DNA from: Bdellovibrionales bacterium RIFOXYD12_FULL_39_22
GTDB taxonomy: Bacteria; Bdellovibrionota; Bacteriovoracia; Bacteriovoracales; Bacteriovoracaceae
Length of the DNA stretch: 20,000 nt
Reading direction: 5' to 3'
Assembly: GCA_001770205.1 (NCBI GenBank)
Contig: MEQL01000051.1
Span: 60,984-80,983 of the forward strand
Position 1 is the first letter of the stretch; the number at the start of each line of letters is the position of its first letter. This document shows, piece by piece, positions 8,640 to 20,000 of this stretch. A program made the position numbers and the translations under genes. Below the pieces are notes generated by a model. That model worked only from the letters and a program-made list of their open reading frames with translations, made no database searches and was not told the origin of the DNA.

Positions 8640-10580
8640 TTATACCCCTTTTACTCTTTTCTTCTCGCGCATAGAAAAATAGATTCCCACAATTAAAATA
8701 ATTATCGGCACTAGTAGTGTATTAATATTTTGCAAAAAGGCCCCCAGATTTTCCACCTTTTCACGGCCAATCCGCTTAACCTCTCGCAGCTCCCCCTTAA
8801 GAAGGGCAATTTGAGCTGCCAACTCTTTTTTCTTTTTAATACCTTCATTTTGAATAAGGGCAACACTCTCTCCGCTTCGTCCTAGCTGATTTAGCTCTTG
8901 AGTAAAACGTTCTATTTGTCCGTTAATTTCTGAAACCTTTGATTCAGTATCTTTTTGAGCATCCAATTCAATCTGATCAACTACATCAAAATTTCTCGAA
9001 AATTTTCCTCTGGAACGAATCGACATTAGATCATTAGATCCGGCCAAATTATCCAATGAGTTCAAAAATAATTTTGCATTATCGTTAACCATGGAAAGGC
9101 CAAAGATGGTGGAGCGAAAAGCATTTTGATCGTGAATAAAATCAACATCAGCAATGACAATCACCGCCCCCTCTTTTTTTGATTCGCTTATCGCTTCTAA
9201 TTTTCTGCTTGCTGCTTTCTTTACCTTATTTTTTGTTTTATCATCTTCTGCTTTTTCCTCATCAACCACTGTTATGCCAGAAGGAAAAGCACTCTTAAAC
9301 TTCCCTACCACTTTATATCCCACGATAACTGGTTTAGCTCCGTCCGTGAACTTGTTCATAAGTGCCACTGGGTTATTTAATTCGTACCCCATTGCTTTAT
9401 AGGTGTTACCCTTCTCTGAAGTTCCAATTATAGGAGTAAATGTATGGCCCGTATCCTCTCCCATCGTACTAAGTGCTCCTGGATAAATAAAGGCCATATT
9501 ATTAATTCCACTAGAAACAACATCTTTACTCACCTGGGTGCAAGTCTGATTACACTCTAAAAGAGGCAACAAGCGAACAGGAGGTGAGAATTGATCCATC
9601 CGTCTAACTCCAGACAAATAACGATCTCCAGTAAAATCACTCTTATCGTATTTTATTCCCCAGGTTGCCAACAGAGGAGCTAAATCTGAGCTATAATCAG
9701 GTTGCATCTGCATTCCCATTTGCGGCGGATTTATCGCCTGTTCCACAATGGCCAAAGGGTCTACCAATACCAGAAGCTTGCCTCCTTCTAATAAGTATTG
9801 ATCAATCGCAAATAAGGTCTTTTCTGAAAAATTCTTAGGATGAATAACCACTAAAAGATCTATTGCAGAAATTTTCTCCGTCTCTGGTAAAACTTCTTTT
9901 ACACTATAAAATTCTTGCATCATCTTGGTTATAATCCAAGATTCTTCTGCATTCTTACCTTGCATTCTCATCATTTGAGCAATATAGGGAGAAACATCTT
10001 CGCTTAAAACTTTTAGAGAAGAAATTATTCCTACATTTATTTTCTTTGGATCCGTGGCCTGATAAATAAGCTTAGTTATATCATATTCAACATTGGCCTG
10101 CATGTTGGGATCAAAAAACTCAATGACTTTTTCTGTTCCATTTTCACTGCGCACTACTAGTCCAAAAAAATATTTTTCAGTTTCTGAAAGAGGAAAACGT
10201 TTCAGGCCGGCAGCAATTGCCTCCTCCTCCTCTTTAGTATCTGGCCGAGGATCTATTACTTCCAGCTTTAGATTGTTTCGTGAATTGGCCACATATTCAT
10301 CTAACAAATCCTTGATATAGTAATAATAGTTATTAAATGCACGAATGCCCTCCGTTCCCTTATTGGCCGCTGTTTTTGAATAGTAAAATTTTAATGTCAT
10401 TGGAGTACTAAGCTTGTGTAAAATGGCCTTGGTGCCATCGGATAAAGAGTATAGTCGCTCCTGAGTAATATCCACCTTAACTTTTTTCCCAATGGTGGTG
10501 CCAATATATGTGGCAAAAACCACAATTAAAATTGCTAAAAAAATATTTAAATATGCTTCCTGTTTACGCTCTATCTTCAT
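8640..10580 (-). CDS. gldG: GldG-family ABC transporter auxiliary protein (ABC_transp_aux)
   Basis: DIT.ERLYSLSDGTK.IL, IDP, FFGLVV, EYDIT..I, IDQYLL.GGKLLVLVDP and VIAD.DF motifs. Has N- and C-terminal TM segments and a C-terminal coiled-coil. Confidence 0.85.
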   Translation of the reverse strand: MKIERKQEAYLNIFLAILIVVFATYIGTTIGKKVKVDITQERLYSLSDGTKAILHKLSTPMTLKFYYSKTAANKGTEGIRAFNNYYYYIKDLLDEYVANSRNNLKLEVIDPRPDTKEEEEAIAAGLKRFPLSETEKYFFGLVVRSENGTEKVIEFFDPNMQANVEYDITKLIYQATDPKKINVGIISSLKVLSEDVSPYIAQMMRMQGKNAEESWIITKMMQEFYSVKEVLPETEKISAIDLLVVIHPKNFSEKTLFAIDQYLLEGGKLLVLVDPLAIVEQAINPPQMGMQMQPDYSSDLAPLLATWGIKYDKSDFTGDRYLSGVRRMDQFSPPVRLLPLLECNQTCTQVSKDVVSSGINNMAFIYPGALSTMGEDTGHTFTPIIGTSEKGNTYKAMGYELNNPVALMNKFTDGAKPVIVGYKVVGKFKSAFPSGITVVDEEKAEDDKTKNKVKKAASRKLEAISESKKEGAVIVIADVDFIHDQNAFRSTIFGLSMVNDNAKLFLNSLDNLAGSNDLMSIRSRGKFSRNFDVVDQIELDAQKDTESKVSEINGQIERFTQELNQLGRSGESVALIQNEGIKKKKELAAQIALLKGELREVKRIGREKVENLGAFLQNINTLLVPIIILIVGIYFSMREKKRVKGV

Positions 10581-10599
10581 ATAAAAATTCTCCGTAAAA

Positions 10600-11346
10600 C
10601 TAATTGGATTTTTTTTCTGTTATCAATAAAATAGTTCCATAAAGCCATCCACCTATCATTAAGGCAAAAAAGAAAAGATCTCCAATAACAATTACCCCTC
10701 TGCCCATCGACTCAAAGTGGTTCATAATGCTAAGTGATTCGAATATTTCCACTAAAAATTTAGGCAAAAAGGTAGAAATAAAACCCAAGATAGGAGGTGA
10801 TCCGGCCATAAGCAGTACATAACAAAAAACTACTCCCAATATAAAACTCACCACCTGATTTTTAGAAATGGCCGAAAAGAAAATTCCAATGGCCAAAAAC
10901 GCTCCTGCCAATAATGCCGCTCCCAGATAGCCTAGAATCACAACTCCCAAATCAGGACTTCCCAAATAAATTACCGTCAAAACTAGCGGAAAAGTTCCGG
11001 CCAAGGCCACTGCCACAAAAAGCCAAGCCGCCAGAAACTTACCAAACACGACCTGAGCTTCCGTCACTGGCATGGTTAACAACAGCTCTATAGTGCCACT
11101 CTTGCGTTCTTCGGCCAAAAGCCGCATAGACACTGCAGGAACTAAAAATAAAAAAAGATAAGGAACATATCTAAAAAAACTACTCAAATCCGCCTGACGC
11201 ATTAGAAAAAAACTTCCACTGCCTGGCTCAAAGGTAACATATCCAATCGCAAATAAAAAAATAATTAAAAAAACATAACCAAGTGGAGAGGCGAAATAAG
11301 ATTTAAACTCTCTGCGCACAATACTTTTTGTCACTTCTGCTATCAT
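10600..11346 (-). CDS. gldF: ABC-2 type permease, GldF-like
   Basis: RREF.SYF.SP.GY, PA.SMRL.AEERKSGTIELLLT.P, GKF and NQVV.F motifs with multiple hydrophobic TM segments. Confidence 0.85.
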   Translation of the reverse strand: MIAEVTKSIVRREFKSYFASPLGYVFLIIFLFAIGYVTFEPGSGSFFLMRQADLSSFFRYVPYLFLFLVPAVSMRLLAEERKSGTIELLLTMPVTEAQVVFGKFLAAWLFVAVALAGTFPLVLTVIYLGSPDLGVVILGYLGAALLAGAFLAIGIFFSAISKNQVVSFILGVVFCYVLLMAGSPPILGFISTFLPKFLVEIFESLSIMNHFESMGRGVIVIGDLFFFALMIGGWLYGTILLITEKKSN

Positions 11347-12080
11347 AAATTAACCCCCTGTACGGACTCTCCAGTGGTAATGGCCCGAAATACATCATCC
11401 AATTTATGTTGCTTTGATTTTGATTTCAAATCGGCCGGCGTTCCATCGTAGAGTAACTTGCCCTTGGCAATTATGATGGCCCTTGTACAGACTTCCTCCA
11501 CTTCTTCTAGAATATGGGTGGAAAGCACAATACATTTATTCCCTGATAACTGGCGAATCAATGTTCGCACCTCATGTTTTTGATTGGGATCTAAACCATC
11601 CGTTGGCTCATCCAAAATCAAAACCTCTGGATCATGAATCAGTGCTTGCGCCATCGAAACCCGACGGCGAAACCCCTTTGAAAGCGTTTCGATTTTCTGA
11701 TAACGTACAGATGTTAGTGCACAGAGATCAATCACCCGATTAACGCCGGCCTCGATTTTGTCGGCGGCCATTTGGCGCAACTCTCCAGCGTAACGCAAAA
11801 AATCCTCCACATACATATCATCATAAAGCGGAGCATTTTCTGACATATAACCAATTAATCCTTTTGTCACTGTCGGAACTTCCTGCACTTTCTTACCACA
11901 CACCAGTGCCTCTCCATCACTCGGCAAAATAAATCCGGTGATCATTTTCATAGTAGTGGACTTTCCTGCTCCGTTTGGCCCTAAAAATCCTAAGATCTCT
12001 CCTTTGCCTGCCGCAAAGGAAATATCATCTACGGCCATAATGGATTCGAATCTCTTAGAAAGGTGATTTACTTCTATCAT
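11343..12080 (-). CDS. gldA: ABC transporter ATP-binding protein, GldA-like
   Basis: Walker A GPNGAGKST, signature LSKGFRRRV, Walker B ILDEPT and STHIL. ATGA overlap with the permease gene. Confidence 0.88.
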   Translation of the reverse strand: MIEVNHLSKRFESIMAVDDISFAAGKGEILGFLGPNGAGKSTTMKMITGFILPSDGEALVCGKKVQEVPTVTKGLIGYMSENAPLYDDMYVEDFLRYAGELRQMAADKIEAGVNRVIDLCALTSVRYQKIETLSKGFRRRVSMAQALIHDPEVLILDEPTDGLDPNQKHEVRTLIRQLSGNKCIVLSTHILEEVEEVCTRAIIIAKGKLLYDGTPADLKSKSKQHKLDDVFRAITTGESVQGVNL

Positions 12081-12278: not shown

Positions 12279-13781
12279 TCAATCACTACTTCCTCTATGC
12301 CCCATATTTAACATTTCAACACTCATAAGTTGTGCTTGGCGAAAATAGTCTATTGATTCGGCCAAAATACGAGCTGCTTCCTGTGGAGCATGAAATCCCA
12401 TGGAATTTTCGGCGGCCACAAAATCCAAACGCCATTGGGCCTTACGATGAAGCTCCGCTATTTTGTTTAGATTAACTTGATCCTGAGATGACTCTACCTT
12501 ATCCGCACTAAATGATTTCTTAAGTTGTTTATAGCTATCCAAAAATTCCGTCAGCGCATTACCTGCGCGCAGAAGTAGATCAAAGTTCCTTTTTTGTATG
12601 GCCGCCACTCTATCTTGTAGTTCCTTTTCATTCCAAGCATGACATTGCTGACAAGATTGATTGGCCATGAGCAGGGGTGAACGAACATAGTGATCTGAAA
12701 CTTTTATTGCGCCTTCTTTTGTATATGGCATATGGCAATCTGCACACGCAACTCCTGATTGTGCATGGATTCCTTGTCGCCACAACTCAAACTCCGGATG
12801 CTGGGCCTTTAGTAACTCTGCGCTTGTTTCACCATGTTGCCAATCAAAAAAACGATGCCCATCAGTAAATTTATACTGCTCATAATAACTTTCTATCTCC
12901 TCCACTTTTACCCCATTACCCCAGGGGAAAAAGAGCGTAACTTTTGGCCCACAATAGTACTCAACATGACACTGAGCACAGACGTAGGTTCGCATCTCCG
13001 CCCTACTTGCATCTCTATTCACATCAAAATTTGCAACCCCCTCAGAGGCCTTAAGCGCTCTAATTCCGGCAACAAATCCTGGCCGGTTAACTTGTAGCCG
13101 CATAGTTTTTGCATTATGACAATCTGTACAAGAGACTGGATGAGCTCCCTCTTGAACTAAAAACTCTCCAACCGCGGCTCCCACTTGCGGATTCAATGAT
13201 CCCGTTTTTTCCAATTCTTTATGTGCCTCATGATATGGCAGTTTAACAATTTTCTCAAATCCACTCCAAATTATATTTTCAAAATATTGATCGGCCGCGA
13301 CCTCTCCACCTCCCATTCGTACCAACGTAGGGATTATAGAAGCGTGACAATGCAAGCAAGCACCTGACTGTGGACGCTCAGTTACTCTGCGTGTTTTTTC
13401 TTGATCAGATAACATATAGGCATGCCCTCGCCTATCTTTGAAATCAAGAGAAAATGCATAACCTGAAAACATACGAGTCAAAAAAGGAAACATCTGAGAC
13501 TTTTGAGCTGGATCAGCATCTCCTCCTCCAAAATTAGTTCTAGAAGCATTGGCAGTTTTTTTATATTGCTCAAAGTGTATTGGCCAATTATTCCCCCAAT
13601 ATGCAGAGTCAGTAGTTGCCTGCTTAACTTCAACTAAGCGCAAATACGGATTTTTCGCTTCCGTCTTATGACGAAAAATAGATACCAATAACATGGTTAA
13701 CAAAAAAACCACCACGCTCACGGCAATAGCAATGCCAATTAATCCCTTTCGACTGTTTACAAAACTATTTTCTAGGTTCAC
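12279..13781 (-). CDS. nrfA: Pentaheme cytochrome c nitrite reductase (ammonia-forming), CXXCH-type heme 1
   Basis: Five heme motifs (CLHCH, CTDCH, CAQCH, CADCH, CQQCH) plus RGH, CHVEYY, KAQHPEFE and ENSMGFHAP. GTG start after GGAG. Confidence 0.95.
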   Translation of the reverse strand: MNLENSFVNSRKGLIGIAIAVSVVVFLLTMLLVSIFRHKTEAKNPYLRLVEVKQATTDSAYWGNNWPIHFEQYKKTANASRTNFGGGDADPAQKSQMFPFLTRMFSGYAFSLDFKDRRGHAYMLSDQEKTRRVTERPQSGACLHCHASIIPTLVRMGGGEVAADQYFENIIWSGFEKIVKLPYHEAHKELEKTGSLNPQVGAAVGEFLVQEGAHPVSCTDCHNAKTMRLQVNRPGFVAGIRALKASEGVANFDVNRDASRAEMRTYVCAQCHVEYYCGPKVTLFFPWGNGVKVEEIESYYEQYKFTDGHRFFDWQHGETSAELLKAQHPEFELWRQGIHAQSGVACADCHMPYTKEGAIKVSDHYVRSPLLMANQSCQQCHAWNEKELQDRVAAIQKRNFDLLLRAGNALTEFLDSYKQLKKSFSADKVESSQDQVNLNKIAELHRKAQWRLDFVAAENSMGFHAPQEAARILAESIDYFRQAQLMSVEMLNMGHRGSSD

Positions 13782-13793
13782 ACATACTCCTGG

Positions 13794-14261
13794 TTATTGT
13801 ATCGGCATATGTCCAATATTTTTATGACAATGAATGCATAAATTCATTGAATGCCCTTCTTTATACAAATTTAAAAGCGTATCTTCCATTAAAGCTTGAT
13901 GGCAGCGAATGCAATTTCTTTGCAAAATATTTTTATTATACTCTTTTATCTGAATGGGCCGATGATAATTTTCTAAAGTAAATGCAACAGAATGATTCCA
14001 CCCGTTGAGTGCTTTGGCCAAGAGCTTATTAAAACTTGTACTTGGCATATGACAGTCATTACAAGTCGCAACATGATGATGCCCCGAAGCAATCCAAGAA
14101 TCATATTGATGATTCATAGCATGGCAGTTAGCACATACTGCTGGATCACTAGAGGCATAGGAAAATCCTTCTCCATAATAAAAAACAAACATCCCTAGTC
14201 CTAAAACAATTCCAAAACAAAACGCCAACACATAGTTAATTTTAAAATAACTTTTACGCAC
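13794..14261 (-). CDS. nrfH: Tetraheme NapC/NirT-family quinol oxidase subunit of nitrite reductase
   Basis: N-terminal TM segment and CANCHAM, CNDCH, CIRCH, CIHCH motifs. Immediately upstream of nrfA. GTG start after AAGGA. Confidence 0.93.
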   Translation of the reverse strand: MRKSYFKINYVLAFCFGIVLGLGMFVFYYGEGFSYASSDPAVCANCHAMNHQYDSWIASGHHHVATCNDCHMPSTSFNKLLAKALNGWNHSVAFTLENYHRPIQIKEYNKNILQRNCIRCHQALMEDTLLNLYKEGHSMNLCIHCHKNIGHMPIQ

Positions 14262-14645: not shown

Positions 14646-15521
14646 TTATTTGCTATCAGCAAACCAGCAGGCCGGACGTAGACCTATCTGATCTCCTCGC
14701 CGTTTATGGCAGGCCCCATCAACACTATTTCGATCACTCAACTCCTCAGTAATGGGCCTATTACAAAGTGCTCCCTGCCAATAAGTATCTAATCGACACT
14801 GGGCATCTGTATGTTTGTCTTCGTTTTCCTCCACAACTTCCCTGCTTGGAGTATCAAAAGAAATCTCCATTCCACCATCAATTTCTAAAGCAAAAAGATC
14901 GGCCAATGATTTTCCGGCCATCGCTGCGCGCACACAAATTGCCTTCTCATCATCGTGTTTATAAGTCAGCGCACAACGCTCGGTTACTCCATGATCTATC
15001 TCCATCGCAGAGATGATGCCAATATTATCATCATTTCTAACTATATTTCTAAAACATTTCAAGGAAGCAAAGTAGTCTGATGCTCCCTCCGAAGAAGGCC
15101 ACTTAAAAATAATACCTCGCGTTTTGGGTGCTCCTCCTAGATGGTGGCCGAGTTCATGACAGACTGCCAAAAGCACTCCATCTCTTGTCACCAAAGGATG
15201 ACGGGCCAGGCCGCCATAGATGGTTACGCTATATAAGGGGCCTACTCGTTGAGCATAGGCATTAACCTCATCAAAGGCCCAACCATTTTGAATGTGTAAA
15301 ACTCCTAATTTTTTTTTCACCACTGGTGCATAAACTTCACTGGCCCGCTTTAGAATTTCTGCAAATTCTTCGCGGGTAATATCATTGGCCAAAAAAGAGT
15401 AGGGGGGAATTTTGAGACTATTTTCGGGCAACAGTTGTCCAAATTTTTGCGGGACAACCATTCCAATATAAATAGAAAAAAAGAAGAATATTGCAATAAA
15501 GATAGGCAAGCGAACCTCCAT
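14646..15521 (-). CDS. Secreted Cys-rich zinc-metalloprotease-like protein (HExxH)
   Basis: Hydrophobic N-terminus, VNAYA, YGGLAR, VCHELGHH, EG.SDYFA, several Cys and a C-terminal RP.CWF. Confidence 0.7.
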   Translation of the reverse strand: MEVRLPIFIAIFFFFSIYIGMVVPQKFGQLLPENSLKIPPYSFLANDITREEFAEILKRASEVYAPVVKKKLGVLHIQNGWAFDEVNAYAQRVGPLYSVTIYGGLARHPLVTRDGVLLAVCHELGHHLGGAPKTRGIIFKWPSSEGASDYFASLKCFRNIVRNDDNIGIISAMEIDHGVTERCALTYKHDDEKAICVRAAMAGKSLADLFALEIDGGMEISFDTPSREVVEENEDKHTDAQCRLDTYWQGALCNRPITEELSDRNSVDGACHKRRGDQIGLRPACWFADSK

Positions 15522-15717: not shown

Positions 15718-15760
15718 TTGACCATACTCCATTTTTAGCAGACAATAATGGAGTATGATC
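15718..15760 (+). promoter_or_regulatory. Sigma70-like promoter overlapped by an inverted repeat (operator) covering the start of the AAA gene
   Basis: TTGACC (15718-15723), 17-nt spacer, GACAAT (15741-15746). Perfect 11-bp inverted repeat CATACTCCATT (15723-15733) / AATGGAGTATG (15747-15757). Confidence 0.62.
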
Positions 15761-16963
15761 CGACAATTTACAACGATTCCCAGACTACTCACCCCTCTGA
15801 AAACCCGAAGTTTTTTTTTATTCGGCGTTAGAGGATCTGGCAAATCAACCTTTATTAATTCACAGTTTCACCCAAAAAATTCAATTTCCATTAATTTACT
15901 CCGACCAGAAATAGAAAATCGATATGCCCTAAATCCAGAAAGCCTTGAACAAGAAATTGATATACTCAAGCGCAAACCAGATTGGGTGTTTATTGATGAA
16001 ATTCAAAAAGTTCCAAAGTTGTTAGATGTGGTACATGATTTAATCGAAAGAAAAAACATCCGTTTTATTCTTACTGGATCTTCAGCGCGTAAATTAAAGC
16101 AAGGTGCCGCCAATCTCTTGGCCGGACGGGCCAATGTTTATTGGATCCACCCTCTTTCTTATCTTGAACTATCTCCTCCATCGAAAACAACTTCCCTCTT
16201 TTCGCTATTAGAATATTTGCGATGGGGTGGACTCCCTTCCATACAATCAATGTCTAGTGAAAGAGAAAAAATAGCATTCTTAAATTCCTACGTATTAACT
16301 TATTTAAGCGAAGAAATTAAAGCAGAACAAATACTAAGAAAGCTAGATCCATTCCGTTCATTTTTACAAATATTAGGCCAAGTCTCTGGGAAAATAATCA
16401 ACCATCAGAAAATCGCGAATGAAGTTGGAGTGGATAGCAAAACTGTACAAAACTATTTTCAAATTTTGGAAGATACGCTTCTTGGATTTTATCTCCCAGT
16501 GTTTCATCAATCAGTAAGAAAGAGTCAAAGATTATCACCCAAATTCTATGTTATAGACACAGGGATAAAAAAGGCACTGGAAGGTAGTCTGGATCAAAAA
16601 CCAGCACCTCGCACTTCTGAATATGGAGAACTTTTTGAACATTTTGTAATATCTGAGATAAAAAAGCTCAACGATTATTTTGAAAAAAATTTTCGCTTTT
16701 CATTTTTTTCTACAAAAAATCAAGTCGAGATTGATCTAATCCTAACAAAAGCAAATTCTAATATCCTGATAGAAATTAAATCCACCGAAAAAATTGATCG
16801 CCAAGAAATAAAATCTCTCGCTAAAATTGCTACCGATTTTCCAGGGGTGCGCGGTGTTTATTATTTATCGAGAGATCCAATTTCTTACAAAATTGACGGT
16901 GTTCAGTGTCTTCCTTGGGATCTTTTTCTTAAAAAATTCAAACAGATTTCGCGAGAGAGGTGA
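15755..16963 (+). CDS. AAA_14 ATPase with DUF4143 / C-terminal PD-(D/E)XK-like domain
   Basis: GVRGSGKST, IDEIQK, LTGSSARKL, LAGRA, GGLP, a wHTH-like segment (KIANEVGVDSKTVQNYF), PKFY..DTG, GELFE and EIDLI...IEIKS. Confidence 0.9.
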   Translation: MIRQFTTIPRLLTPLKTRSFFLFGVRGSGKSTFINSQFHPKNSISINLLRPEIENRYALNPESLEQEIDILKRKPDWVFIDEIQKVPKLLDVVHDLIERKNIRFILTGSSARKLKQGAANLLAGRANVYWIHPLSYLELSPPSKTTSLFSLLEYLRWGGLPSIQSMSSEREKIAFLNSYVLTYLSEEIKAEQILRKLDPFRSFLQILGQVSGKIINHQKIANEVGVDSKTVQNYFQILEDTLLGFYLPVFHQSVRKSQRLSPKFYVIDTGIKKALEGSLDQKPAPRTSEYGELFEHFVISEIKKLNDYFEKNFRFSFFSTKNQVEIDLILTKANSNILIEIKSTEKIDRQEIKSLAKIATDFPGVRGVYYLSRDPISYKIDGVQCLPWDLFLKKFKQISRER

Positions 16964-16993
16964 TTGGACAAACTACTTACAATCCCAGTAATT

Positions 16994-17470
16994 TTATGTG
17001 AGGACCGGATGGACAGAACCTTTGCGGCGAAATTCTAAAAAGCCTTCAACAAATAATCGTTGAAACTTATTCATATTTTCAGGCAAGTTATTCAGTGGAA
17101 AAAATTCTATTTTAAGGGATTCATTGGATTTTGCAATTTTTCCTTCAAATGTATTCGTATAGAACCCCATTGCGACAGATAATGTTTCATCTCCATTTGG
17201 ATATTTTGCTTCAAACTCGGGTCCAGAAAAAATGCCGAAGAGTTGTAGATTTTTTATCGATAATCCAGTCTCTTCGAACACTTCTCGTTGAGCACTTTCT
17301 GCTGCTGTTTCTCCAATATCCATTAAACCTCCAGGAAGTCCCCAGGTATTAGAGTCGTCTCTCAAATGCATTAATAGATTATCACCTTTATCTAAAATAA
17401 CGACAGCAGTACTCGGTATTAAAACTTTATCATGACCAACTTTCATTCTGATTTTTTTGATATATTCCAT
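16994..17470 (-). CDS. Nudix hydrolase
   Basis: Nudix box GGLMDIGETAAESAQREVFEETG plus YPNGD motif. The ATG at 17470 is preferred to the TTG at 17476. Confidence 0.92.
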   Translation of the reverse strand: MEYIKKIRMKVGHDKVLIPSTAVVILDKGDNLLMHLRDDSNTWGLPGGLMDIGETAAESAQREVFEETGLSIKNLQLFGIFSGPEFEAKYPNGDETLSVAMGFYTNTFEGKIAKSNESLKIEFFPLNNLPENMNKFQRLFVEGFLEFRRKGSVHPVLT

Positions 17471-17506
17471 AACCAACAGTTTTGCTACTAATTAAAGATT
17501 GGTCAA

Positions 17507-17610
17507 CAAGCTAATATTAAAAATTTGGTCCATGCCTGCGTATTTCTCAACTTTCGTGATCTTGCGCAGAAAAGCTCGCCTTTCTGCGCAAGATCTATTA
17601 TCCGCCAACG
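17507..17610. repeat. Structured direct repeat, copy 1 (contains a perfect 15-bp hairpin)
   Basis: Matches 19314-19416 at about 80/104 positions by manual alignment. Stem GATCTTGCGCAGAAA (17558-17572), 8-nt loop, TTTCTGCGCAAGATC (17581-17595). Confidence 0.85.
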
Positions 17611-17732
17611 TTTTTGAGCACAAACCACTTGCGATCTAGTGGTTTTAGGGTGAGCCCTTTTTATGTAGGGTAATCAGCTTGTCTAAAATAAGCATTTTAT
17701 ATATAGTATTTACTAAATTACAAATGAGAAGT

Positions 17733-19295
17733 ATGAAAAAAGATATATTTGCAGTTCAAATGTCAGATGGGATCACTCTTAAAACATTCGTTTATTCTGC
17801 GGACGAAAATTTATCTGTACCACTTCCCGTAGTCTTGTTGCGAACACCATATTTATTTAAGGATGGTCAATTTAGAGATGATCGTTATGAAAAGGAGGCC
17901 GAATACTATATCGCCCGAGGGTACCTTTTTTGTGTTCAATCAATACGAGGAACTCATGGTTCCGAGGGAACTTTTAAATTACTTCACCCAATTGAAATTT
18001 CTGATGGAAAAGATACTCTTTCCTGGTTAGCGGTTCAACCGTTTTGCAATGGGAATGTTGCGGTAGTTGGCAGTTCCTATGAAGGATTTACTGCTTTAGC
18101 CGCTGGAATAACTGGCCATTATATTTTGAAAGTTGTGTTTGCATCTAGCGCACCGGCAAGTCTTTATGATGATTATTTTTTGAATCGTGGAATATTAAAT
18201 TTAACCACATTAGATTATTTAAGATATATTCAAACAGGTCAGGGATGGGTAAATACTAAGGATTTTAATAAAATCATTGATGAAAAATGTAAAAATATTG
18301 CTGATATTAGAACCTATGATGAGGCCGTCTTCAATCTAAATATCCCAGAGTGGAAATTGATATCCAGAAATTATTGTGATCCCAATGCTGTTTTTTGGAA
18401 AGAGCGACAAATCGTGGATCAACTAAAGAGTATCATCGTTCCGACTTATCATATGGCAGGGTTACAATATGACGGAAATTCGGCAGATACCGTTCGCAAT
18501 TTTGTAGAAACACAAAAGAACTCTAAAAATAAGTCACAACACCACCTCCTTTTGGGGTTTTGGAATCATGGCCAGTCTATGCCACACGGAGACGGATCAA
18601 ATGCCTCAGAATTCATAAAAGATAAATATGATAGCCTGCTTAGATATTATTTAAAAAATGACAAAACTGCTAATTTAGAAAATCAACAAGTTTGTATACA
18701 ATCAAACTTTGATAACAAATTTTTAAATGACACCCAATATCCTTTAAGCTCTTTGAAGGAGTTGAAATTATTTTTAAATCATAATGGAGATAAGGGGTCT
18801 CTAGAACATTCAATTTGTTCTTCTAGAAATGAATCTTTATATAATTTTTTTCCTCTAGAAAAAAATATGTATGACGGAAAACAACATGTTGAATTCGAAT
18901 GTGCCGTCGATAGAGATTTTTGTTTTTTAGGAGGTATTGAAATTGACGTCTATTGCAAACTGCCGGTACCGCAAGGTGACATTATGTTTTTCTTTTATAA
19001 AATTGATAAGCAAGGTGAGCGACATTATTACGGCGACAGATCCGCAATTAAAATTATAGCTGACAGCTTGAATATAAGTCATATTAATATTGAGTCTAGT
19101 CCTATGATGGATAAATTAGTCTCTGGTGAGACATTTGGAGTTGAAATAACCAGCAATAACTTTCCAGTCAGAGCAAGAAATACAGGAAGAGAAATGGTGT
19201 CTTTCTTCAATGGTTTTAGTGATACTCAAATATCAATTCTTCATTCTTATGAATATCAATCGTCGTTAACCTTTAAAATAGAGTCATCACTTTAA
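17733..19295 (+). CDS. CocE/NonD family (peptidase S15) alpha/beta serine hydrolase
   Basis: MSDGITL, P.VLLRTPY, RGT.GSEG, nucleophile GSSYEG, GFWNHG and a C-terminal GVEITSNNFP. The ATG at 17733 is preferred to the TTG at 17679. Confidence 0.9.
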   Translation: MKKDIFAVQMSDGITLKTFVYSADENLSVPLPVVLLRTPYLFKDGQFRDDRYEKEAEYYIARGYLFCVQSIRGTHGSEGTFKLLHPIEISDGKDTLSWLAVQPFCNGNVAVVGSSYEGFTALAAGITGHYILKVVFASSAPASLYDDYFLNRGILNLTTLDYLRYIQTGQGWVNTKDFNKIIDEKCKNIADIRTYDEAVFNLNIPEWKLISRNYCDPNAVFWKERQIVDQLKSIIVPTYHMAGLQYDGNSADTVRNFVETQKNSKNKSQHHLLLGFWNHGQSMPHGDGSNASEFIKDKYDSLLRYYLKNDKTANLENQQVCIQSNFDNKFLNDTQYPLSSLKELKLFLNHNGDKGSLEHSICSSRNESLYNFFPLEKNMYDGKQHVEFECAVDRDFCFLGGIEIDVYCKLPVPQGDIMFFFYKIDKQGERHYYGDRSAIKIIADSLNISHINIESSPMMDKLVSGETFGVEITSNNFPVRARNTGREMVSFFNGFSDTQISILHSYEYQSSLTFKIESSL

Positions 19296-19313
19296 AGTCA
19301 TTCCACCGTTTTT

Positions 19314-19416
19314 CAAGCAAATATTTAAATTTCGGGCCATGCCCGTTATTTCTCAACTTTTATGTTCTTACTCAGAAAAGCTCGCCTTGCCGAGCATTAC
19401 TCACTATCCTCCAGCG
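19314..19416. repeat. Structured direct repeat, copy 2 (diverged)
   Basis: Shares the identical blocks TATTTCTCAACTTT (14 bp) and CAGAAAAGCTCGCCTT (16 bp) with copy 1. Starts 18 bp after the cocE stop. Confidence 0.85.
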
Positions 19417-19626
19417 ATTGCAGCCACCGAAATCGGCAATTATGGAGTTACCAGCACTGCCACAAACTGGCCCATCTACTTTATAAACATTTAATCGGAT
19501 ATCTCCAGCACCGCGACTAATTCCAACAATTGATTTCATTGCAACTCTCACGCGAGCAATATCTTGCTCTGGACTTGCAAATGCAGATAGTGATATTAAT
19601 GCACATAGGTGATCGGTATTTTTCAT
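19372..19626 (-). pseudogene. Probable truncated gene for a small secreted protein, running into repeat copy 2
   Basis: LCALISLSAFA-SPEQD looks like a signal-peptide cleavage region. The last ~15 codons and the stop lie inside the repeat. No clear RBS. Confidence 0.45.
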
Positions 19627-19755
19627 GTTGCGCGTAAACTAAGAGTTTGCCTGTGTAACAAAGCTGCTGAAGGGGCATTTAGGGTCGACGGCCAAGGTAC
19701 CGACTGCCTTTCCTCAAGATATTATAAATTTTTTCATTTAAATAACTTCCACTAA

Positions 19756-20000
19756 CTATGTAAGAGCTTGCTTTAGCAGATACGAAGTCGGCCGGTTAAG
19801 GATCTCTTTTTTTAGTGGCTTAAAGCGATCTACTAAATCCGGAGGAGGTTTAAACTTGAGATCAGGAAATAGTTTTTCTATTATATTGATACTCATCGCC
19901 AGCACCGATGAATATAGATCCATTACTGTAGGATTCTTAAATTTCTTTTGCGGATTTTTTAGCACGTATTGCAGGGCGATTTTAATCTCGCGAGGGGATG
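19756..20000 (-). mobile_element. 3' end of a probable REP-associated tyrosine transposase (RAYT) / IS200-like Y1 HUH enzyme (5' part outside window)
   Basis: The frame stays open to the window edge and reads SPREIKIALQYVLKNPQKK...DLYSS. This matches the RAYT/Y1 catalytic-Tyr helix (Y-I/V-xx-NP) and the downstream Y/W-SS motif. The HUH motif is not visible. Confidence 0.68.

Follow-up and report, generated by a model that had tools for sequence, protein, structure and literature searches.

Which process has placed a hairpin-forming repeat between single genes at the end of a contig that also carries part of a Y1 transposase gene, and is that gene involved? The stretch in question, called the window below, comprises 20,000 nucleotides of contig MEQL01000051.1 of Bdellovibrionales bacterium RIFOXYD12_FULL_39_22 (family Bacteriovoracaceae, assembly GCA_001770205.1), positions 60,984 to 80,983, or G000:C51:60984-80983 with G000 for the genome under study, and its end is the end of the contig. 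The textbook example of gene-cassette arrays is the integron, and a preliminary description of the window had proposed an integron-like array of single-gene cassettes run by the Y1 enzyme. The cassette part of this proposal largely holds, while the Y1 part does not.

In the explanation that we favour, the repeat, a three-hairpin spacer between co-oriented genes, is likely the recombination site of an integron-like system. Promoterless single-gene cassettes would join at the ATT that ends the spacer, the mobile unit would be a gene together with its downstream spacer, and the joining enzyme would act from elsewhere, being most likely a host Xer-like tyrosine recombinase and not the adjacent Y1. 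As a whole, this explanation has in our estimate an even chance of being correct, and its parts are graded separately below.

The Repeat and Its Range

The two copies in the window align in direct orientation with 80 identical bases of 104/103. While the pair of diverged direct repeats at gene boundaries had been recognised correctly, the limits first given to it (17507-17610 and 19314-19416) had to be redrawn, the elements being longer (17513-17639 and 19320-19430). The repeat reads from CTAG to AATATT on the window's minus strand, which gives its polarity. Copy 1 (17513-17639, minus strand) is complete, with CTAG at 17639-17636 followed by hairpin 1, hairpin 2 at ca 17556-17593, an A-rich box, hairpin 3, and AATATT at 17518-17513. 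Copy 2 (19320-19430, minus strand) retains its AATATT at 19320-19325 and has lost the CTAG end, so that the open reading frame (ORF) upstream of it reads into the repeat. A remnant of a third repeat, consisting of 21 bases of the element start, is found at 16968-16988 (minus strand), 5 bases past the stop codon of a Nudix gene. The pattern of this remnant (up to 2 mismatches) has 7 matches in the genome, the other 6 of which are inside known copies, and the remnant is cut at the end of an oppositely oriented ATPase gene.

With a profile built from the window copies, 33 copies are detected in the genome; they are spread over 22 contigs, and 25 lie no more than 3.3 kb from a contig end. The same profile gives no matches in the shuffled genome, and the repeat is therefore not a product of chance. 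As the cassette idea had envisaged, the copies sit between variable genes.

Across 100 family genomes, a BLAST search with the window copy gave one strong match apart from those in this genome, and three rounds of sequence-only models raised the number of family genomes with the repeat to at least 7, then at least 26 and finally at least 30 of 151, in at least 18 of the 69 genera. These counts are lower bounds, because only the best 19-20 candidates per genome were scored, and more diverged families of the repeat may be missed. In a sample of the phylum outside the family, 4 of 127 genomes gave one match each. No match was found among plasmids, phages and viral contigs, with the family pattern giving 0 viral matches, and scans with exact patterns gave 4 matches in GTDB genomes and 1 viral match, none of which fits the repeat profile. 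Rfam has nothing near threshold in window positions 16900-20000 and no matches in 7 array loci. Metagenomes contributed 20 distinct loci, 16 with a full repeat; 14 of these are identical to this genome and 2 are absent from it.

The anatomy of the repeat was derived from 113 near-full copies from 21 genomes (103 of them distinct). It is an element of roughly 130-165 bases made up of CTAG, three hairpins and ATT. The start columns C, T, A and G are conserved at 93, 97, 97 and 83% (the G being otherwise A), and the final A, T and T at 98, 97 and 98%. At least five pairs are formed in hairpin 1 in 92 of 107 copies, in hairpin 2 in 108 of 112 and in hairpin 3 in 65 of 110. Each hairpin region folds better than shuffled sequence, which the linker after hairpin 2 does not. 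For hairpin 2, a 71-row alignment has 76.8% of its cells paired, compared to 67.6% when shuffled and 37-52% when slid, and 105 two-sided changes compared to 48 in the shuffles; these pairing figures are inflated by the relatedness of the copies and by the fact that the helix was derived from the consensus. No structure emerged from consensus folding of the diverged alignment, as hairpin 1 sits in two registers. An 11-6-11 reading of the central inverted repeat is possible. That the repeat derives from coding sequence was considered as well and is ruled out by indels of 1, 2 and 7 bases between copies.

Repetitive extragenic palindromic (REP) sequences carry a GTAG/GGAG foot. This foot is present in 0 of the 113 copies, and the earlier suspicion that the repeat belongs to a new family is borne out.

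Array Layout and Cargo

The genes around the near-full copies share one orientation to a high degree, the nearest upstream gene being co-oriented in 99 cases versus 4 and the nearest downstream gene in 92 versus 7. In 36 of 93 cases the TAR of CTAR serves as the stop codon of the upstream gene, and in 77 of 93 this stop falls between -25 and +20 bases; the downstream start codon follows the ATT by 20-34 bases in 68 of 74, with a ribosome site in between. Within arrays the repeats are all direct, and an array can hold up to nine genes, as in G026. The two ends of the arrays are truncated differently. The 5′ part is missing from the first element, or head, of 18 of 40 arrays and from 0 of 39 last elements; the 3′ part is missing from 11 of 39 last elements and from 0 of 39 middle ones.

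The cargo is small, diverse and largely of secreted type. The 213 distinct flanking ORFs have a median length of 147 residues and fall into 198 families, and by a loose rule 182 of them begin with a signal-peptide-like segment, compared to 31% of the genome's ORFs. No Pfam match was obtained for 87 of the 100 flanking ORFs that were scanned (a random 110 of the 213, minus 10 duplicates or fragments). The cassette genes that do have a match include ones for an ADP-ribosyltransferase-domain protein (L022:546-1358, G000 C41), a beta-lactamase-family protein (PF00144; L258:82-1488, G097) and an M4 metallopeptidase (L257:190-1131, G018). In G026, three cassette genes (L107, L142 and L144) combine a near-identical signal-peptide start, MKKLL.GLL.LGS.SSFA, with unrelated mature parts.

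Insertion elements are known to target the attC sites of integrons. Here, in parallel, unrelated insertion sequences are found in or beside the repeats, both in this genome (C34:146, C49:2585, C36:~4000 and C54:19477) and in others (G073 L110, G010 L145 and G164 L162). In two copies an IS110 element follows directly after the ATT, and IS3-like elements are found in the A-rich box.

Heads, Shuffling and the Probable Joining Point

Within a set of four related heads from two genomes, and within a set of three from another genome, the sequences are alike up to ATT(A) and then diverge within a few bases, leading into different genes directly past the ATT. The genome under study has a head element of its own, which is present in 7 places and ends in an AATATT-type motif.

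The genes themselves are found in changing company. Among 19 homologous pairs of flanking ORFs, 5 cross-genome pairs with 77-91% identity have non-homologous neighbours on both sides. For 4 other cross-genome pairs (93-100% identity) the neighbour is shared or could not be judged, and the remaining pairs are distant or lie within one genome. Two genes that are adjacent in G073 sit in separate arrays in G010. Gene content in relatives thus varies unit by unit at the repeats, in line with the preliminary description. With alike heads leading into different genes, and shared genes in different surroundings, the arrays show the behaviour of integron cassette arrays. We consider it probable that they are made of units that move one by one. 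We further infer that the units are joined site-specifically and at the ATT; site-specific joining as such is marginally favoured in our view.

Candidates for the Joining Enzyme

We now turn to the question of which enzyme could join the cassettes. An integron integrase is not indicated by our searches: the best TIGR02249 score in this genome is 52.7 bits in the genome search and 81.5 bits for the whole protein, compared to a cut-off of 265, and IntI was found in 0 of the 151 family genomes at E 1e-40, a limit at which no control genome was detected.

The recurrent neighbours of the arrays are island modules (tyrosine or serine integrase, Replic_Relax relaxase and coupling protein) and insertion sequences. 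The commonest are serine recombinases, with 11 genes in 7 genomes; such an enzyme was found in 0 of the 5 array genomes G068, G013, G073, G010 and G094. Of the 151 genomes, 44 have a reverse transcriptase, but G000, G010, G013, G022, G026 and genus g11 (0/6) yielded none. IS110, found in 2 of 5 genomes, is read as a hitchhiker, and an IS91-type Y2 enzyme was found in 1 of 5, in a search whose control was silent. The MOB-C/Replic_Relax relaxase occurs in 96 of 151 genomes, with up to 13 copies per genome, and was not found in G057 or in G013, which has arrays and is assembled in 9 contigs at 99%. A third Xer-like family is present in 73 of the 151 genomes and was not found in G000, G018, G022 or G026.

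By elimination of these enzymes, a Xer-like host enzyme is the best single candidate. Each of the 5 genomes examined encodes a Xer-like recombinase whose motifs are intact, along with another whose catalytic residues are altered. That such an enzyme joins the arrays is nevertheless a tentative assignment, to which we give a minority chance.

As to the location of these genes, the conserved XerC-like gene with altered catalytic residues, found in this genome at C2:26192-27124, stands directly upstream of ribD in 3 of the 4 relatives' loci examined (L235, L232, L225 and L221), and in G073 this gene has an array just upstream in divergent orientation. Integrative islands with an integrase, an excisionase-like helix-turn-helix protein and a MOB-C/Replic_Relax-like protein are found in this genome at C13:47436-51042, C19:38619-42074 and C45:16607-20405, the first of them beside an apparent tRNA gene (recognised by eye).

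It is important to point out that a number of findings weigh against cassette joining at the ATT by a Xer-like enzyme. There is no enzyme gene at a fixed position beside the arrays. Tyrosine recombinases are present in 149 of the 151 family genomes and, being near-universal in the family, cannot explain why the repeat is seen in only 30 genomes. No chromosomal dif-like site resembling the repeat core was found in this fragmented genome, and variation in the arms of the core is accompanied by compensatory changes, a pattern more in keeping with a folded structure than with a fixed protein-binding site. In addition, a Xer cut in the central inverted repeat would place the crossover away from the ATT.

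The cassettes raise similar difficulties. The last repeats are often followed by one further gene without a repeat, and in the window array the cocE gene is inverted. As to which repeat travels with a shared gene, the partner's repeat ranks anywhere from 2nd to 96th of 111-150 in four shuffled pairs and is first in none; one pair shares its upstream repeat, from the CTAG on. The two ends of a cassette show no covariation (70 cassettes, 2.34 compared to 2.34 when shuffled). One of three heads in G026 starts matching at the CTAG, so that both ends of the repeat may be boundaries. Finally, no excised or circular cassette was seen in the assembled contigs of 8 runs over two arrays; this is no evidence of absence, because contigs drop rare forms.

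Alternative Explanations

The most serious alternative is that no dedicated recombinase is involved. The spacer would then be a module acting at the RNA level, with hairpins that protect the mRNA, antisense terminators and a ribosome site, and RecA-type recombination between spacers of 55-90% similarity, and between similar signal-peptide starts, would grow and shuffle the arrays. Several observations fit this. The sense strand folds better than its complement in 85 of the 103 distinct copies with RNA parameters (and in 88 of 103 with DNA parameters), the hairpins covary, and hairpins 2 and 3 of the window copies score as terminator-like. The DNA of the signal peptides is similar between cassettes, no flanking repeat consistently tracks its own gene, and no enzyme tracks the arrays. 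Both strands fold better than shuffles, and the folding data fit an RNA structure and a single-stranded DNA structure alike and do not tell the two apart. However, unrelated genes abut the CTAG and the ATT within a few bases, an arrangement that homologous recombination does not create anew, and neither the sharp divergence of the heads at the ATT nor the truncation of first and last elements on opposite sides is in favour of it. We judge this alternative to be rather unlikely.

Another option is that a dedicated enzyme of unrecognised type acts on single-stranded DNA to join the cassettes. It could be a nuclease or recombinase, or else the MOB-C/Replic_Relax relaxase encoded on the islands on which arrays are often found, and the arrays in genomes without the enzyme would be relics. 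The heads often adjoin the relaxase operon of integrative islands, the patchy occurrence of the repeat (at least 30 of 151 genomes) is as expected for a mobile system, and a hairpin followed ca 10 bases on by a fixed ATT presumably resembles a nick site. On the other hand, most of the genomes with the relaxase family are without the repeat, the relaxase is missing from the searched sequence of an array genome, as described above for G013, and no other family recurs beside the arrays. This scenario appears unlikely.

The last alternative, namely that the adjacent Y1/RAYT-like HUH enzyme (RAYT, REP-associated tyrosine transposase) cuts the hairpin repeats and builds the arrays, as had been proposed, is largely refuted by the results below and is in our view highly improbable.

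The Y1 Gene

The edge gene itself had been identified correctly. Its 3′ end occupies 19756-20000 on the minus strand and runs to the end of the contig, 340 bases separating position 19416 from the ORF stop, as had been stated, and 326 bases separating the gene from the repeat. The 80-residue edge fragment alone gives no Pfam match; two full Y1_Tnp genes from other contigs of the genome match it with 94% and 80% identity. Metagenome contig L040, which is identical to the window end and continues past it, supplies the rightward extension with the whole Y1 gene, which scores 38.6 bits with PF01797 (cut-off 23) and has HLH and YVLKNP motifs, in keeping with a Y1 HUH fold with its HUH motif and catalytic tyrosine. 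These motifs align with TnpA-REP 4er8 in a weak match (E 0.015). The REP-associated model NF047646 gives 51.5 bits compared to a cut-off of 80, and the IS200 model 22.1 compared to 55; the best NCBIfam and PDB matches are both of the REP-associated type. Judged by these matches, the edge gene is a genuine Y1/RAYT-like transposase gene.

However, this gene arrived at the array by a route of its own. It lies inside an element of 1456 bp in which an 18-bp inverted repeat forms both ends; part of an IS4 transposase is present at the far side, and the target is not duplicated. The left copy of the inverted repeat (window 19604-19621, plus strand) cuts a cassette-type gene for a secreted-type protein (19372-19603, minus strand), breaking it inside the signal-peptide region. 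The lost 5′ part of the broken gene was not found across the IS4-bounded element or elsewhere in the assembly, and we infer that the head of the window array was removed by the IS4/Y1 insertion. In L040 the composite element spans 10271-11726, the Y1 gene within the IS4-type inverted repeats replacing the front of the IS4 transposase. Just past it, at L040:11759-12568, is an RNA-ligase-like gene (PF09414, 23.7 bits, below cut-off), and L040 has no repeat beyond the Y1 gene.

The element is present in several places. The 18-bp motif (up to 3 mismatches) has 17 matches in the genome, only 2 of which, in the window and on C50, are within 1.3 kb of a repeat. The assembly contains two full copies of the Y1 gene and five partial matches with 86-100% identity, and contig depth over the gene, a rough measure that fits several copies, is 78.9 compared to 14-15 in the flanks in one run and 46.5 compared to 7-9 in another. 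The gene behaves as a mobile one and not as a single-copy sedentary RAYT. Related Y1 genes reach up to 10 copies in some family genomes.

The distributions of enzyme and repeat do not match either. The repeat lies within ca 1.5 kb in 0 of 34 other Y1 loci, contrary to the expectation that such loci would be flanked by it. A search with PF01797 gave one match each in G013 and G094 and none in G010, G073 or G068 (99% complete, in 3 contigs), three genomes with 7 to 20 repeat matches. Fragmented assemblies can lose multi-copy elements, which weakens the result for G010 and G073 but hardly that for G068. With the Y1 protein as query, matches were obtained in 38 of the 151 family genomes, that is, in 4 of 20 genomes with at least two repeat matches versus 34 of 131 others, so that there is no enrichment. 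A second remnant with an IS4 end and Y1, on C50, is 1.2 kb from a partial repeat, which can be counted in favour of the enzyme; against this, many further insertion elements are likewise found within the repeats or next to them. We know of no case in which REPs serve as boundaries of single-gene arrays. The Y1 transposase beside the array is most likely an unrelated insertion, and the RAYT idea is thereby removed as the leading explanation.

Comparison with Known Systems

The arrays have much in common with integrons and with CALINs (clusters of attC sites lacking integron integrases) as these are described in PMC5027507, namely co-oriented and apparently promoterless single-gene units split by a repeated site, a stop codon inside the beginning of that site, a separate kind of head element, cargo that is for the most part unknown, insertion sequences that land at the sites, and arrays without an adjoining integrase. 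The sites themselves are different. According to the same source, attC has the core motifs RYYYAAC and GTTRRRY at its two ends, and in the repeat these occur in 1 and 2 of 113 copies, and both together in 0 of 113. Instead of a single long hairpin that pairs the ends of the site and favours the bottom strand there are three separate hairpins, with the sense strand favoured, and the conserved ends are CTAG and ATT; no IntI was found in the 151 family genomes, within the limit given above. A 3-base TAG/TTA pairing of the repeat ends is possible but invariant.

A second point of reference is pdif of Acinetobacter, acted on by XerC/XerD, for which PMC13141974 describes modules shuffled by a host enzyme encoded elsewhere; the same is a candidate mechanism here, and the repeat core is likewise readable as 11-6-11. 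However, pdif sites as described there are 28 bp long, alternate in orientation and match the chromosomal dif, whereas the repeat is five times longer, always direct and has variable, covarying arms, with no matching dif found. Compared with RAYT/REP systems and REPINs (PMC5581495), the likeness is that the edge gene is RAYT-like and that the repeat is intergenic, multi-copy and hairpin-forming. RAYT groups differ in duplication and in REP association according to that paper. The present Y1 gene differs from such systems in being multi-copy within an IS4-bounded element, and the repeat in not flanking other Y1 genes and in being present where no Y1 match is found. Integrative mobilisable elements of the MOB-C/Replic_Relax kind share with the arrays that several of these lie on islands with a tyrosine or large serine integrase, a relaxase and sometimes a coupling protein. 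The islands are vehicles, though: other arrays lie between chromosomal genes without such a module, and most genomes with the relaxase have no repeat match.

A family-wide integron-like array with a site other than attC is apparently undescribed; no description was found in the literature searched, the coverage of which mostly excludes subscription journals. Standard searches would miss these arrays, because detection rests on attC and IntI, neither of which was found here. In PMC12642874, IntegronFinder is reported to find no integrons in a Bacteriovorax genome.

In these relatives of predatory bacteria, the arrays point to a large stock of small secreted-type proteins that can be exchanged, and the cassette proteins would be candidates for prey interaction. 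A bolder proposal is that they represent a lineage-wide gene-capture system independent of integrons, with a three-hairpin CTAG/ATT site, heads of its own, an enzyme class not known for cassette arrays, and a pool of hundreds of secreted proteins exchanged between genera. For this we see somewhat less than an even chance. In any case, enough is now established about the site, the heads and the probable joining point to allow a recombination assay and a targeted search for the enzyme.

The Window Array and Neighbouring Genes

Read along the minus strand, the window array consists of the truncated secreted-type gene, a repeat, the inverted cocE, a repeat, the Nudix gene and the remnant. The CocE/NonD-family hydrolase gene (17679-19295, plus strand, probable ATG at 17724; TIGR00976 174.8 bits, cut-off 66.3) lies between the two repeats on the strand opposite to their polarity. 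Its stop codon (TAA, 19293-19295) is followed after 18 bases by position 19314, just as first described, and hairpin 3 of copy 2, together with the T's on the plus strand, could terminate its transcription. The Nudix hydrolase gene (16994-17476, minus strand, probable ATG at 17470; PF00293 66.7 bits) is of cassette type and in array direction.

A CTCAC..AAAA stretch is found just before the CTAG in some copies, in the window at 16994-17002 and 17640-17660 and elsewhere in the genome at C52:195 and C34:290; the stretch at 16994-17002 includes the last codons of the Nudix gene. The ATPase gene at 15755-16963, with AAA_14 and DUF4143, ends where the third repeat is cut, and genes of AAA_14/DUF4143 type are also found near arrays on C5, C39, C41 and C47. 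Further upstream, 14646-15521 encodes a secreted metalloprotease-like protein, which falls into clusters with Bdellovibrionota as the commonest phylum and has a homologue 10 bases from a repeat in G126. The region 12279-14261 encodes a pair of multihaem cytochromes c that we take, from inspection by eye, to resemble the nitrite reductase NrfA/NrfH.

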